A stretch of DNA of 64,000 nucleotides from Rickettsia typhi (GTDB lineage: Bacteria; Pseudomonadota; Alphaproteobacteria; Rickettsiales; Deianiraeaceae), in contig CAMDIK010000007.1 in the NCBI GenBank assembly GCA_945898725.1, forward strand, positions 3,859-67,858, given 5' to 3'. Position numbers and translations under genes: made by a program. Below, piece by piece: positions 48,530 to 60,554 of this stretch (its first letter is position 1; every line of letters starts with the position of its first letter). The notes under the pieces are model-generated. The model was given only the letters and a program-made list of their open reading frames with translations. It was not told where the DNA came from and made no database searches.

Positions 48530-49834
48530 TTAGCAGATTTTCAAGATTTCTTGCAGAATTTCGTGAATCATCAGATTTCCCGTTGCACCAATATGGGTTT
48601 TAGATTTTATATTCTCAACCGGGTTGATATTTTCCAGTTGTGCCAGGTTGTTTTTAACCATATGGTACGCATCGCGAAAGGACATTCCCTGGTGTATTAC
48701 CAGATTATTTGCCACGTCTGTTGCGAAAATTGTTGAATCTTTTGCGAAGGTTTGGTGTAAAATTTCCTCATTTGGGCTTAAGTTTTCCATTGTAATTTCC
48801 ATTATTTTCAAGCTTGAATCGGCTATTTCCAGAGATTCCATAATGGCGCTTTTGCTGAATTTTAAGTCTTTATTGTAGCCTGAAATTAGATTGTGGCATA
48901 AAACCGTCATCTGGGATAAATTTGCAAAAATTTTGGCAGATTTTCCGCGCATAACCTCCATGGCGTCTAAATTTCGCTTTTGTGGCATGATGCTTGAGCC
49001 CGTTGTTATGGCGTTTGATGCTGTGAAAAATCGAAATTCCTGCGAGCAAAATATTATAATATCGTTTGCCATTTTTTCCAAAGTTAGCATCACTTGAGAC
49101 AAGCATGAGATGGCGAAAATTTCAAATTTACCTCGAGAATTCTGGCAAAATAGCGAATTTATCATAGTTTTTTCAAAGCCTATGTCTTTGGTTGTGAAAT
49201 TTCTATCCAGCGGAAACGAGGTTCCAAAACCCGCGGCAGACCCAAGTGGATTTTGGTTTATTAGACGCGTTCCTGCGTGAATACAGTGCAAATCATTCAG
49301 TAGGGACTCTAAAAAAGCTCCAGCCCACTGCCCCACGCTAGAAGGCATCGCATGCTGCATGTGGGTAAACCCCGGCATGGGAATAAACTCATATTTTATC
49401 GCAAATTCCGCAATTTTTTTCGCCAATTCCTTGATATTTTCACATATTTTCTGCATTTCCGCGATGGTAAATAGTCTCATTGCGGTTAGAACCTGGTCGT
49501 TTCGCGAGCGCCCCGTGTGTATTTTTTTCCCTAGATCGCCAAGTTTTTCGGTGAGATAATTTTCAATTGCCGAGTGTATATCTTCGAACCCTGCAAGGTT
49601 AAAATCGCCACCAAGTGCGTCTATTTCGCCTAAAGTTTTGATAATTTTTTCAAGTTCATCAGGGGTAAAAATGCCAATATTTGCAAGCATTTTAGCGTGT
49701 GATTTTGACGCAAGAATATCGTATTTTAGCAGTTTTCTATCCTCACAAAGCTGCGGGGAAAATATATATTCGCTAATTTTCGGGTGCAATGCAGAGCCGC
49801 CTTCATTCCATAATTTCGCCTTTAATTCACTCAT
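48530..49834 (-). CDS. argH: Argininosuccinate lyase
   Basis: Fumarate-lyase family with TGRSRNDQV and GSSIMPQKRN motifs. Overlaps the upstream ORF by 8 nt. Confidence 0.9.
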   Translation of the reverse strand: MSELKAKLWNEGGSALHPKISEYIFSPQLCEDRKLLKYDILASKSHAKMLANIGIFTPDELEKIIKTLGEIDALGGDFNLAGFEDIHSAIENYLTEKLGDLGKKIHTGRSRNDQVLTAMRLFTIAEMQKICENIKELAKKIAEFAIKYEFIPMPGFTHMQHAMPSSVGQWAGAFLESLLNDLHCIHAGTRLINQNPLGSAAGFGTSFPLDRNFTTKDIGFEKTMINSLFCQNSRGKFEIFAISCLSQVMLTLEKMANDIIIFCSQEFRFFTASNAITTGSSIMPQKRNLDAMEVMRGKSAKIFANLSQMTVLCHNLISGYNKDLKFSKSAIMESLEIADSSLKIMEITMENLSPNEEILHQTFAKDSTIFATDVANNLVIHQGMSFRDAYHMVKNNLAQLENINPVENIKSKTHIGATGNLMIHEILQEILKIC

Positions 49835-51323
49835 TTACCTCTGCTAAAAAACAACAAAATTCACCTTTTTGAATAGCATTTTTCGGGAAAATTACGAACG
49901 AATCTCTGCTGGCTGAAATATTTTCACCCCCGTCATTTGCAAAATTTTCGCCTGATTTTACCAATGTAAAATTCGCTATATTTTCTTGTGCGAAGCGGAA
50001 ATTGCCTGATTTTGCTACGATTTTATCGTATATTCTGAATTTTTTCACCCCCGCTGCGGTTGTTGTGAATTCTTTTCTAAAATGCGCCTGAATTAATTCC
50101 ATTGACTCTTTTGAAAAATATTTCGGATTTTTAAAGGTACTTCCAACTGTTTTTCTGCCAATAGGTTGAGTTTTGGCACGCTTTTCTGAAATTTCTTTCA
50201 TTTTTTTCAAAATTTTCTCACATTCACCACTCTGCCCTTCTAAAACCACTTTAGTTATTATTATATCGCTTGGTAAATTCGCGCTTCTATATGTAAAATT
50301 TACATCTTTTTTATGCAAAATTCCAATATTTCCCGCAAAATCAACATACTCGCAGGAGGTAAAAATATCGGATATTTCCCGCCCATAGCAACCCGCGTTC
50401 ATGTGCACATTCCCCCCGATTGTGCCTGGAATTCCTATTAAAAACTCCATTCCTGATATGCCATTTTCAGCTGCAAATTGTGCCACGGAAAAATCTAAAG
50501 CCCCTGCCCCAACTTCTATTTTTTTCTCTGAAATTTTTCGCATTCCGGAAAAGCCTTTTTTCAGGGAAATTACAGCCCCGCGCACGCCTTTATCGCGCAC
50601 AATTGTGTTTGATCTTGCCCCAATAACGGTTAAAGAAAGGGAATTTTCCGCCTCTAAAATGGTGCATTTTTCCTGTATTATTCGCATAATTCCATCAAGT
50701 GCAACTTTGCTACAGGAATTTTCAATTGACCCCGCTTCGATTGTTACGCCAATTCCTCCATTTCTATCAATAAATGAGTCAAAACTGGTGAATAAATCTT
50801 TGTCTTCTTGGGAAAAGTTCCCCCCGGGAGAAATTATTGTATTTATTTCAAAATTTTCAGCAATTTCAAGATGAGGCAGGGAATTTTTGCAGAAAATAAA
50901 TGGCTTCGAAGCCCTGATCGTTGAGTGAACGTCCAGCAAAATATCACAATTTGAAAAGAACGGAAGTATTGCAACAAGCCTTGCACGCTCGGTATTTGTT
51001 CGATTTCCCACCAGGTTTTCAAGACCTTCAAGACCAAGCAGGCGATTCATGTCTTCCACAACGAATCGCACATTTTGCCTTATTGCCTCTATATTTGCAC
51101 AGATAAATGTCACTTTTCCTGAAGATATTCCGCATTTATCCAGGTGTGGTATTGCGCTTTGCATAATATCAAGCCCGACTGTTTCATTTCCGTGTACGCA
51201 CAGGGTTATTGCTATGTGCGCGCCGGGTTTTTCGCCTTTTATTTCAAAAATACCCTTCCCCAGCTTGGAAAATCTTTGAAAATTCAGCGATATTTTTTCT
51301 AACAAATTGTCAATTTCCTGCAT
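49827..51323 (-). CDS. Chimeric protein: AstE/AspA-family zinc deacylase core (aa ~1-215) fused to a MurB-like (UDP-N-acetylenolpyruvoylglucosamine reductase-like) domain (aa ~215-498)
   Basis: The N-terminal half has CVHGNETVG, ANIEAIRQNVRFVVEDMNRL, DILLDVHST and GVTIEAG, the zinc and catalytic residues of the succinylglutamate desuccinylase/aspartoacylase family. The C-terminal half has VIGARSNTIVRDKGVRGAVISL, GMEFLIGIPGTIGGNVHMNAGCYG, FTYRSANLP and TQPIGRKTVGSTFKNP, all MurB motifs. The region after that is poorly conserved. Confidence 0.7.
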   Translation of the reverse strand: MQEIDNLLEKISLNFQRFSKLGKGIFEIKGEKPGAHIAITLCVHGNETVGLDIMQSAIPHLDKCGISSGKVTFICANIEAIRQNVRFVVEDMNRLLGLEGLENLVGNRTNTERARLVAILPFFSNCDILLDVHSTIRASKPFIFCKNSLPHLEIAENFEINTIISPGGNFSQEDKDLFTSFDSFIDRNGGIGVTIEAGSIENSCSKVALDGIMRIIQEKCTILEAENSLSLTVIGARSNTIVRDKGVRGAVISLKKGFSGMRKISEKKIEVGAGALDFSVAQFAAENGISGMEFLIGIPGTIGGNVHMNAGCYGREISDIFTSCEYVDFAGNIGILHKKDVNFTYRSANLPSDIIITKVVLEGQSGECEKILKKMKEISEKRAKTQPIGRKTVGSTFKNPKYFSKESMELIQAHFRKEFTTTAAGVKKFRIYDKIVAKSGNFRFAQENIANFTLVKSGENFANDGGENISASRDSFVIFPKNAIQKGEFCCFLAEVNE

Positions 51324-59491: not shown

Positions 59492-60554
59492 TTGATTCAC
59501 CAAACCATTCATGAAATATAAAATTTGCATCGTCCGTTCCGGGGCAAGATTCCGGGTGAAATTGAGCTGTTTTTATTAGAAATTTTTCCGATATTATACC
59601 CTCTACCGTTTCGTCATTTAGATTGACATATTTTGCCTTTACGCCATTTGGAATGCTTTCCGTTACAACGGAATAAGAGTGATTTTGCGAGATTAAAAAC
59701 ACGCGATTTGTCTCTGTGTCAATTACCGGGTGGTTTGATCCGCGATGCCCGAAAACCATTTTTTCAACCCTGCACCCAAGCGCCAGGCATATTATTTGGT
59801 GCCCAAGGCATATTCCGTAAATTGGAATTTCGCCGATTAGATCTTTGATTTGCGCGATTAAATCTGCTAAATCCGCGGGATTTCCTGGGCCATTTGATAT
59901 GATAATTCTATTTATTGAATATTTTTGGATACATTCTAAAATGTTTGCGCTGTATGGAACGATGAAAATATTGCCGAATTTTGCTAAATTATCTATAATT
60001 CCCTGTTTTACCCCGCAATCTATTAGTAAAATATTTGATTTTGCTGAATTTTCCCCGGGTATGATTACATCTTTTGCAACGCAGCTTGCCAGAATGCAGT
60101 CTTGTGTATTGATTTCAAATTCCTTGATTAATTCGCTACTTTTTTCGCGACTAAACTCTGAAGCCTTCCAAATTCCAAGTTTTTTCACCTTACCATCTCT
60201 GATTTTTTGTGTTAAATCTCTGGTGTCAAGCCCGGTAATTACGGGAATATTGTGGGAATTCAGGTAATTTACAACGCAATCTTCTGCCTCCTTCGCAATT
60301 AGGCAAGATATTTTCGCTGCCTGGCTTTGACTTACCAAAGAATTTAGATTGTAATTTCCGATCAAAGGGTATGTCATTACCACGGTTTGCTGCGCATAAG
60401 ATGGGTCAGTAAAAATTTCCTGATACCCAGTCATGCTTGTATTGAAAACCAATTCCGATATAATGGAATCTACTTTAACCTGCGAATAAAACGATATTTC
60501 TAAACCGTTATCAAATAAACATATATAATTTTCCATTCCTGGGGCGCATAGCAC
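59484..60554 (-). CDS. carA: Carbamoyl-phosphate synthase small (glutaminase) subunit
   Basis: GICLGHQ and the triad region HRGSNHPV...FHPE. The track start at 60554 is GTG; an ATG at 60536 is an alternative. Confidence 0.92.
   Translation of the reverse strand: MLCAPGMENYICLFDNGLEISFYSQVKVDSIISELVFNTSMTGYQEIFTDPSYAQQTVVMTYPLIGNYNLNSLVSQSQAAKISCLIAKEAEDCVVNYLNSHNIPVITGLDTRDLTQKIRDGKVKKLGIWKASEFSREKSSELIKEFEINTQDCILASCVAKDVIIPGENSAKSNILLIDCGVKQGIIDNLAKFGNIFIVPYSANILECIQKYSINRIIISNGPGNPADLADLIAQIKDLIGEIPIYGICLGHQIICLALGCRVEKMVFGHRGSNHPVIDTETNRVFLISQNHSYSVVTESIPNGVKAKYVNLNDETVEGIISEKFLIKTAQFHPESCPGTDDANFIFHEWFGESNE

Follow-up and report, generated by a model that had tools for sequence, protein, structure and literature searches.

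A horizontally acquired arginine operon predicted to use N-succinylated intermediates in a reduced alphaproteobacterium, and a MurB sequence divided between two genes

Introduction

The closest described counterpart of the operon reported here, which occupies positions 48530-60554 of the minus strand in a 64,000-nucleotide stretch of a genome assigned to Deianiraeaceae (GCA_945898725.1, contig CAMDIK010000007.1; the whole stretch is called the window below), is the arginine pathway with succinylated intermediates, which has been documented to date in Bacteroidetes such as Bacteroides fragilis and B. thetaiotaomicron. In that pathway glutamate is acylated, phosphorylated, reduced and transaminated, the acyl-ornithine is carbamoylated, and the acyl group is removed at the citrulline stage. 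The Bacteroidetes set includes the GNAT protein BT3761, an ArgB that in B. fragilis is a succinylglutamate kinase, the carbamoyltransferase ArgF' BT3717 and the M20 desuccinylase BT3549, so that deacylation in Bacteroides is the work of an M20 enzyme (PMC7311316). Ser, Pro, Ala or Val at one site of ArgF' (residue 90 in B. fragilis, 92 in Xanthomonas campestris) confers a preference for succinylated substrates, as in Bacteroides (PMC7311316).

A second point of comparison is the GapMind 2026 preprint, whose Appendix 2 predicts, without experiment, that ACG33_RS14135 of Steroidobacter denitrificans is an alternative N-succinylglutamate synthase (bioRxiv 10.1101/2024.10.14.618325). The grounds given were the operon context, the residue-92 rule, the fact that the gene and ArgA are anti-correlated, and a remote similarity, detected by Foldseek, to the D-glutamate N-acetyltransferase DgcN (PDB 7XRJ); the family was described as virtually always located in arginine operons and never co-occurring with ArgA, and the N-acylcitrulline hydrolase step was listed as missing in S. 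denitrificans (bioRxiv 10.1101/2024.10.14.618325).

Here we analyze the operon of the window and a MurB sequence inserted into one of its genes. We consider it probable that this is a single horizontally acquired, long-resident operon for arginine synthesis via N-succinylated intermediates, that it replaced the canonical pathway, and that, separately, the organism has a two-chain MurB. Like the Bacteroidetes pathway, it has an ArgF' whose specificity site is occupied by a small residue, in this case Pro, and the same predicted order of chemistry. It differs in having a P-loop protein instead of a GNAT, an AstE/AspA-type zinc hydrolase instead of an M20 peptidase, and carAB inside the operon, and its host is a reduced alphaproteobacterium, to which the succinylated pathway would thus be extended.

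Results and Discussion

Organization of the operon

The window is part of contig C7 of a 1.07-Mb assembly (G000; 22 contigs, completeness estimate 81%). Nine open reading frames (ORFs) stand head to tail on the minus strand, and eight of them could be named by Pfam and NCBIfam, the exception being a P-loop ORF of 344 amino acids (aa). In the order of transcription they are as follows, with the chimeric eighth gene given in its three parts.

59484-60554, minus strand: carA, glutamine-hydrolysing carbamoyl-phosphate synthase small subunit (TIGR01368, 330 bits, over cut-off)
56447-59491, minus strand: carB, carbamoyl-phosphate synthase large subunit (TIGR01369, 1166 bits, over cut-off)
55235-56440, minus strand: argG, argininosuccinate synthase (TIGR00032, 266 bits against a cut-off of 268; Pfam N- and C-terminal domains)
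54186-55232, minus strand: argF', acyl-ornithine carbamoyltransferase, predicted to be N-succinyl-L-ornithine-specific (Pro90; NF003384, 239 bits against a cut-off of 288)
53174-54208, minus strand: P-loop ORF, 344 aa, predicted N-succinyl-L-glutamate-forming substitute for ArgA (no Pfam or NCBIfam family)
52180-53172, minus strand: argC (TIGR01850, 282 bits, over cut-off)
51325-52167, minus strand: argB-like amino-acid kinase, predicted N-succinylglutamate kinase (TIGR00761, 134.6 bits against a cut-off of 151.3)
50658-51323, minus strand: chimera part 1, AstE/AspA catalytic domain and linker, aa 1-222 (PF24827 at aa 34-201)
50040-50648, minus strand: chimera part 2, inserted MurB middle, aa ~226-428 (FAD_binding_4 and the start of MurB_C)
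49827-50039, minus strand: chimera part 3, AstE/AspA C-terminal barrel-sandwich hybrid domain, aa 429-498 (PF04952 at aa 429-492)
48530-49834, minus strand: argH, argininosuccinate lyase (TIGR00838, 321 bits, over cut-off), whose start overlaps the chimera stop by 8 nt

A sequence-only reading of the window had described nine minus-strand genes with junctions from -23 to +12 nt, and the ORF coordinates together with the Pfam and NCBIfam matches bear this out. The junctions are +6 nt for carB/argG, +2 nt for argG/argF', -23 nt for argF'/P-loop ORF, +1 nt for P-loop ORF/argC, +12 nt for argC/argB, +1 nt for argB/chimera and -8 nt for chimera/argH, the two overlaps being those described before. 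The third overlap, 8 nt between carA and carB (ATGAGTAA), depends on a carB start at the ATG at 59491, the likely one, with which the usual CarB N-terminus results; the longest ORF would give a 47-nt overlap. The start of carA is either the GTG at 60554 or an in-frame ATG at 60536. Promoter and terminator scans gave nothing better than shuffled sequences.

In the proposed pathway, glutamate would be N-succinylated by the P-loop protein, and the resulting N-succinylglutamate would be phosphorylated by the ArgB-like kinase and reduced by ArgC. Transamination would be left to an unlinked, resident aminotransferase of the ArgD/DapC type (contig C13), after which ArgF' (Pro90, succinyl type) would carbamoylate the product with carbamoyl phosphate from CarAB. 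The AstE/AspA-type zinc hydrolase would then release citrulline by desuccinylation, and ArgG and ArgH would convert citrulline to arginine. All the substrate specificities in this scheme, and the chemistry of the P-loop protein, are inferred.

Origin of the operon

We compared the operon with 40 same-family or same-order genomes (41 including G000), and a single-gene tree was built for ArgH, of the nine operon proteins. In this tree the window ArgH falls in a 100% clade with L006, L008, L009 and L047, four metagenomic operons of the same type, and this clade is sister (99%) to ArgH from Planctomycetota, Gemmatimonadota, Acidobacteriota and Woeseiaceae, which have the same operon type. The ArgH proteins of 10 relatives are separate, across two 99% branches, and group with Micavibrio-like alphaproteobacteria; the window argH scored 321 bits, compared with 465-636 bits for the relatives' full-length matches. 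ArgG of the window is 71% identical to that of L006/L009 and 46% identical to that of L145, a metagenome-assembled genome (MAG) labelled Patescibacteria, vs. 29-34% to those of the relatives. The relatives' carbamoyltransferase is a canonical ornithine carbamoyltransferase (OTCase) of ~305 aa, 26-35% identical to the window's, and the P-loop gene was found in 0 of the 40. These data support the horizontal acquisition that the sequence-only reading had proposed.

The premise of that proposal, a clade lacking arginine synthesis, was not supported: over-cut-off matches to argH were present in 26 and to argB in 24 of the 41 genomes, and amino-acid pathways have been reported in Deianiraeaceae and allied families (PMC10847448). 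Because the relatives mostly have canonical arginine genes, the event was a replacement rather than a gain in an arginine-less clade, and the operon appears to have replaced the canonical pathway of alphaproteobacteria, whose surviving members are argD and an orphan argB. A comparison of composition, which had also been suggested, gave no sign of recent transfer; GC, GC at third codon positions (GC3) and codon usage of the nine genes are all inside the genome's range. As the operon has the composition of the genome, the transfer must be old, and the operon is best regarded as long resident. The sequence-only reading had further inferred an organism that cannot rely on host arginine. In L006, a 61% relative, carA and carB are fused into a single 1392-aa ORF (L006:2566-6744), and a 262-aa transpeptidase-domain gene (L006:7974-8762) is located between argG and argF'.

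Unlinked and missing arginine genes

Neither ArgA nor ArgJ was found in the assembled 81% of the genome, in agreement with what had been read from the window, and the lack of an M20-type ArgE was likewise confirmed: the sole M20 deacylase is DapE, on another contig. The claim that ArgD is missing held for the operon and not for the genome, since contig C13 encodes an ArgD (431 bits, over cut-off). This ArgD is 64% identical to the ArgD of a relative without argH, and for this reason looks resident and probably doubles as DapC. The orphan canonical argB (G000:C4:33911-34741; L004:1492-2412, minus strand) is located beside pepA and an rnd-like gene and scored 201.6 bits against TIGR00761, vs. 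134.6 bits for the operon kinase. Four relatives that lack argH (G002, G006, G008 and G009) also keep an argB, a hint that the gene has a role outside arginine synthesis. A 1555-aa open frame with at least three GNAT acetyltransferase domains is present on contig C1 at ~7300-9200 (L128-L130).

ArgF' and the type of acyl group

The transcarbamylase motifs SLRTR, HPMQ and HCLPVRR are all present in ArgF' (alignment to 3KZC/3L04). Its best PDB match is 3L04, a chain of the X. campestris N-acetylornithine carbamoyltransferase (AOTCase) in which Pro replaces Glu as residue 92; Pro90 of the window protein aligns with that residue. Because Pro occupies the acetyl/succinyl specificity site, the pathway is predicted to be of the succinyl type and ArgF' to be an N-succinyl-L-ornithine carbamoyltransferase (SOTCase). 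We also determined the residue at this site in 69 ArgF/ArgF' genes adjoining homologues of the P-loop ORF: Ala in 34, Thr in 16, Pro in 6, Val in 5, Ser in 4, Gln in 3, Gly in 1 and Glu in none, so that 65 of the 69 have Ala, Pro, Ser, Val or Thr.

The P-loop protein and the first step

A word-indexed search for homologues of the P-loop ORF returned 33 proteins, all lacking Pfam domains, a number that understates the family size; a pattern scan of species-representative genomes gave at least 583 loci, and a full HMM (hidden Markov model) scan of 1.84 billion representatives gave 703 clusters at E<=1e-30. For the analysis of gene neighbourhoods, 80 named loci were kept from the pattern scan. 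In all 80, from more than 10 phyla, the P-loop gene (X) is located immediately upstream of argC inside an arginine operon, usually in the order argG-X-argC-argD-argF'-argB-argH or X-argC-argB-argD-argF. The carriers include Micavibrio-like alphaproteobacteria, Planctomycetota, Acidobacteriota, Gemmatimonadota, Myxococcota, Spirochaetota, Woeseiaceae, Elusimicrobiota, Armatimonadota, Chloroflexota and one Haematospirillum isolate. No ArgA or ArgJ over cut-off was found in any of six carriers searched (G000 and five others, of which three are complete chromosomes).

The P-loop ORF very probably belongs to the same family as ACG33_RS14135 of the preprint (UniProt A0A127FCT3), with which it was matched by description. 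Its homologues share the arginine-operon habit, an adjoining succinyl-type ArgF' (Ala, Pro, Ser or Val at residue 92) and the lack of ArgA in the genome, and the Woeseiaceae loci among them share the same operon order. The role of succinylglutamate synthase is therefore not new, as the preprint already predicts it, and our counts, with the position conserved in all 80 loci and neither ArgA nor ArgJ found in any of the 6 genomes, provide independent comparative support for the predicted alternative ArgA.

The AlphaFold (AF2) model of the P-loop ORF has a mean confidence (pLDDT) of 93.9. Residues 145-344 appear to form a P-loop domain of the SIMIBI class (AF2 model and Foldseek), with best Foldseek matches to dethiobiotin synthetase, SRP (signal recognition particle) GTPases and HypB, all generic SIMIBI P-loop proteins; the best of them, 3of5, was matched at E=1e-6 with template-modelling (TM) scores of 0.39/0.57. 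Residues 1-140 form an all-beta domain, modelled alone at pLDDT 94.4, for which Foldseek gave no PDB fold match (best E=0.48). When the P-loop ORF was compared by sequence and by profile with Pfam, NCBIfam and PDB, it had matches only at the level of the Walker A motif, the best profile match being BioD (E=0.0036). Invariant in the family are GxxMxSGKT (Walker A), D195, E248xxD251 (a Walker-B-like ExxDG), a Lys located 22 positions downstream of the Walker Lys and several Gly, Arg, Asp and Glu residues of the beta domain. The spacing of 22 is that of K15 and K37 in BioD.

Membership in DUF1611/DgcN was considered and rejected. Pfam DUF1611 matched at E=0.0024 over 47 residues, below the cut-off, and hhalign against 13 DUF1611 proteins from 12 genomes gave E=0.024 over 43 columns around Walker A. 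Since this profile comparison is not significant, we conclude that the P-loop protein is not a DUF1611/DgcN member; the preprint leaned on the DgcN similarity, whereas here the N-terminal domain has no fold match either. Compared with BioD and the CobB-CobQ amidoligases, which the C-terminal domain matches best in both structure and profile, the protein shares GxxxxGKT and the second Lys 22 residues downstream, and differs in the modest TM scores (~0.4-0.57), the extra 140-aa beta domain and the lack of significant homology beyond the P-loop. BioD- and CobQ-type enzymes phosphorylate an oxygen first and then form a C-N bond, which is what ligation of succinate to glutamate would need. Because such chemistry would fit, an ATP-dependent succinate-glutamate ligase is as plausible as a transferase, and we consider a ligase acting in the manner of BioD/CobQ and a succinyl-CoA (coenzyme A) transferase about equally probable. 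A CoA-independent first step of arginine synthesis, predicted as P-loop-catalysed ligation with succinate and ATP, is thus one open reading, and the alternative ArgA candidate emerges as a protein outside DUF1611/DgcN, with an N-terminal domain without a solved relative, whose acyl donor could be a CoA ester or the free acid plus ATP.

The AstE/AspA-type deacylase

The chimera is 498 aa long and matches PF24827 at aa 34-201 (E=8e-18) and PF04952 at aa 429-492 (E=4e-4). The residues corresponding to the zinc ligands (HxxE...H; H44, E47 and H133) and to the catalytic Glu (E196) are invariant across six orthologues. The scores against the AstE models, 60.6 bits for TIGR03242 (cut-off 305.65) and 79 bits for NF003706 (cut-off 170), are far under the curated cut-offs; the protein is a member of the AstE/AspA family and not an AstE orthologue. 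An AstE-like gene is located between argB and argH also in L006/L007, L009, L047 and L145, that is, in at least three lineages, and the orthologues of L006/L007, L047 and L145 are without the MurB insert. The order in L145 is argG-argF'(Ser90)-X-argC-argD-argB-AstE-argH. In L008, the AstE-like protein and ArgH are fused in one 735-aa ORF (L008:11320-13527), with an argD of the operon coming after it; further downstream, beside a hexapeptide-repeat gene, is a second amino-acid kinase.

The AstE-like protein most probably serves to desuccinylate N-succinylcitrulline, a prediction we make because succinyl removal is part of the family chemistry, the accompanying ArgF' is of the succinyl type, a fusion to ArgH exists and the genome has no M20 ArgE. 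With AstE and aspartoacylase it would share the fold, the zinc and catalytic residues (HxxE, H, E) and the type of reaction, hydrolysis of an N-succinyl or N-acetyl amino acid. It differs from AstE of the arginine succinyltransferase (AST) catabolic pathway in that the gene is part of a biosynthetic operon, coupled or fused to argH, in its low score (79 vs. 170 bits), in its predicted substrate, N-succinylcitrulline, and, in this genus, in the MurB insert of ~200 aa. We found no paper proposing an AstE/AspA hydrolase for this reaction; the first-step prediction for the P-loop protein is that of the preprint. An AstE/AspA-type hydrolase is also a candidate for the N-acylcitrulline hydrolase missing in S. 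denitrificans, and the AstE-ArgH fusion backs this candidate. That the two odd ORFs could supply the first and the deacylation steps had been suggested from the sequence, and the conserved co-location with arginine genes, the invariant residues and the preprint's prediction all favor it.

A MurB sequence divided between two genes

The eighth gene had been read as a deacylase-MurB chimera. Both domains are present, but the arrangement is not a head-to-tail fusion: the MurB segment is an insertion of ~200 residues in the linker between the AstE/AspA catalytic and C-terminal domains, and part 3 of the chimera aligns with the C-termini of the insert-free orthologues. The insert, which in this genus would be the middle of the organism's own murB, corresponds to residues ~58-245 of a 330-aa MurB. 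No single-chain MurB over the cut-off of 144.5 bits was found in the assembled genome; TIGR00179 matched the chimera with model positions 23-245 (119.7 bits) and an ORF on contig C1 with positions 224-290 (70.1 bits). The latter is a 156-aa murB remnant (G000:C1 ~17770-18240; L014:1252-1722, plus strand) that is located between lspA and trpS and overlaps both, with murC ~0.6 kb away on the other strand. It consists of the first ~57 residues of MurB, a 26-aa linker and the last ~70 residues.

Insert and remnant are complementary, with breakpoints in variable loops, one of them inside a loop specific to Deianiraea-like MurBs. In 117 full-length MurBs, 101 columns are conserved; the middle ones (GxxSN, PGTxGG, YR, GSTFKNP) are almost all retained in the insert and the terminal ones (W-GG-P; SW.LI, H.NF..N, LEWE) in the remnant, with overlap only at SW.LI. 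The conserved FAD-binding and catalytic residues (Arg, including YR173; Ser; Glu) are present across the two genes combined. Thus, compared with a single-chain MurB of ~300-340 aa, the two pieces jointly carry essentially every conserved residue once, but in three segments on two genes, the middle one nested in another enzyme, while an unconserved linker connects the N- and C-terminal ones.

An independent sample (SRR26784072) contains a 500-aa chimera in the same operon and a remnant in the same murC-lspA-remnant-trpS synteny, at 56-59% identity, and a third remnant was found in another assembly. Between the window and L009 the inserts are 70% identical, with a nonsynonymous divergence (dN) of 0.24, vs. 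0.37-0.39 for the AstE parts, and synonymous sites are saturated. The C part of the remnant is 82% identical between the same two organisms (dN 0.14), whereas the linker is 19% identical. murA, murC and murG are intact in G000, and each of the 28 relatives that gave a match has a near-full-length murB, truncated at contig ends in one case; a sample of a sister lineage whose AstE gene is insert-free has an intact 329-aa murB. The closest full-length MurBs are 50-56% identical, the best named one (50%) being that of Ca. Deianiraea vastatrix.

We predict that the insert and the 156-aa protein most likely form a two-chain MurB together. The more specific arrangement, a product of reciprocal gene fragmentation in which the desuccinylase-borne middle (the bulk of the FAD-binding fold, with Arg and Ser) docks with the 156-aa N- and C-terminal protein (Glu) and so ties peptidoglycan precursor synthesis to an arginine enzyme, has in our judgment an even chance of being right. 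A route through duplication and then reciprocal loss would not require an intermediate that is lethal. Comparison of the synteny of the remnant with that of the relatives' intact murB gave no clear answer: the order is murC-murB in order-level relatives and ispDF-murB in the sister lineage, and same-family relatives have no shared flanks. The intact murB follows ispDF in the sister-lineage sample (L147:4001-4990), and in a chimera-bearing relative ispDF is ~1.4 kb beyond argH on the opposite strand (L009:17103-18293). The proximity of ispDF may be a vestige of the way in which murB sequence reached the neighbourhood of the operon. If the prediction is right, nature would here provide a rare example in which two loops of an essential enzyme have been cut, the central piece has come to lie within an enzyme unrelated to it, and selection keeps both halves, which is of interest for protein evolution and split-protein design; it also carries a warning for annotation, as genomes with the split MurB would be scored murB-less.

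Alternative explanations

Several observations weigh against the picture of an acquired succinyl-type operon with a two-chain MurB. ArgF', the ArgB-like kinase and ArgG are all under their NCBIfam cut-offs and must therefore be divergent, ArgF' of L047 has Gln at the specificity site, and the composition of the nine genes has no foreign signature. The structural argument of the preprint was not significant in our profile comparison. In addition, ArgA, ArgJ, a dedicated GNAT or a full murB could sit in the missing 19% of the genome, and a few generic GNATs are present in the assembled part. If the operon were a vertical alphaproteobacterial one, merely fast-diverging in a reduced genome, the ordinary GC, GC3 and codon usage would be expected, and it would agree with this that the nearest named P-loop homologues are alphaproteobacterial (Micavibrio-like, 41-44%) and that the relatives make arginine too. 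We nevertheless consider it very improbable, given the absence of the P-loop gene from all 40 relatives, the two 99% branches that split the ArgH proteins, the canonical OTCase instead of ArgF' in the relatives, an ArgG closer to that of the Patescibacteria-labelled MAG than to theirs, and the canonical argB remnant alongside the operon's own kinase. An N-acetyl pathway, in which ArgF' would act as an AOTCase like that of Xanthomonas, with the AstE/AspA protein as an aspartoacylase-like N-acetylcitrulline deacetylase, could draw on the best NCBIfam match of ArgF', which is N-acetylornithine carbamoyltransferase (NF003384), on the acetyl-removing aspartoacylase (NF002601) in the AstE/AspA family and on the canonical N-acetylglutamate kinase gene elsewhere in the genome. 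Its probability is small, because the specificity site has Pro, not Glu, as in the B. fragilis enzyme and the converted E92P mutant, Glu occurs in none of the 69 neighbouring ArgF', and the deacylase is closer to succinylglutamate desuccinylase (79 bits) than to aspartoacylase (46 bits).

For the P-loop ORF another role could be argued, as a kinase, as a regulator or as a chaperone that supplies the deacylase with metal, with glutamate acylated by a generic GNAT or an unassembled argA or argJ. SIMIBI proteins include metallochaperones, with HypB among the Foldseek matches, both deacylase types found in these operons (AstE-like and M20) are metalloenzymes, and an 81% complete genome with small GNATs leaves room for such an enzyme. 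The metallochaperone version was rejected, as the family has no conserved Cys/His metal motif and no guanine motif (NKxD), its invariant residues being Gly, Arg, Asp, Glu, Lys and Thr; many P-loop operons have no room for a deacylase gene, for example in Woeseiaceae, where argB abuts argH; and ArgA and ArgJ are missing from all six genomes checked, the family never occurring together with ArgA according to the preprint (bioRxiv 10.1101/2024.10.14.618325). We therefore regard a role other than the first enzyme as unlikely. More doubt attaches to MurB. The AstE/MurB gene and the 156-aa remnant could be an assembly artefact or what a rearrangement left to decay, with MurB supplied by an unassembled or unrelated gene and the insert being dead weight or even disabling the deacylase; the incompleteness of the genome and the scores of both pieces, which are under the cut-off, speak for this, and we know of no solved example of a two-chain MurB. 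Decay or artefact is hard to reconcile with the same chimera and remnant synteny in an independent sample and a third remnant elsewhere, with the partition of the conserved columns between inserts and remnants, with the low dN of the insert and of the remnant C part at saturated synonymous sites next to a linker of only 19% identity, and with intact murA, murC and murG and a near-full-length murB in the relatives. It is a possible but doubtful explanation, and a two-chain MurB is more likely than decay.

Other features of the window

The operon is flanked by two genes.

60589-61962, minus strand: dsbD-like gene, 34 nt upstream of carA (DsbD_TM and thioredoxin domains)
45752-48406, plus strand: alaS, convergent flank downstream of argH (TIGR00344, 837 bits)

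The dsbD-like gene is possibly on the same transcript as the carA operon. Two further ORFs, of 1257 aa (36489-40262, minus strand) and 541 aa (43827-45452, minus strand), gave no NCBIfam match at E<=1e-15. The window also contains a complete 16S rRNA gene at 30761-32269 (plus strand), which is solitary, with no adjoining 23S gene and no tRNA gene in the 64 kb; an unlinked rRNA operon is common in Rickettsiales.

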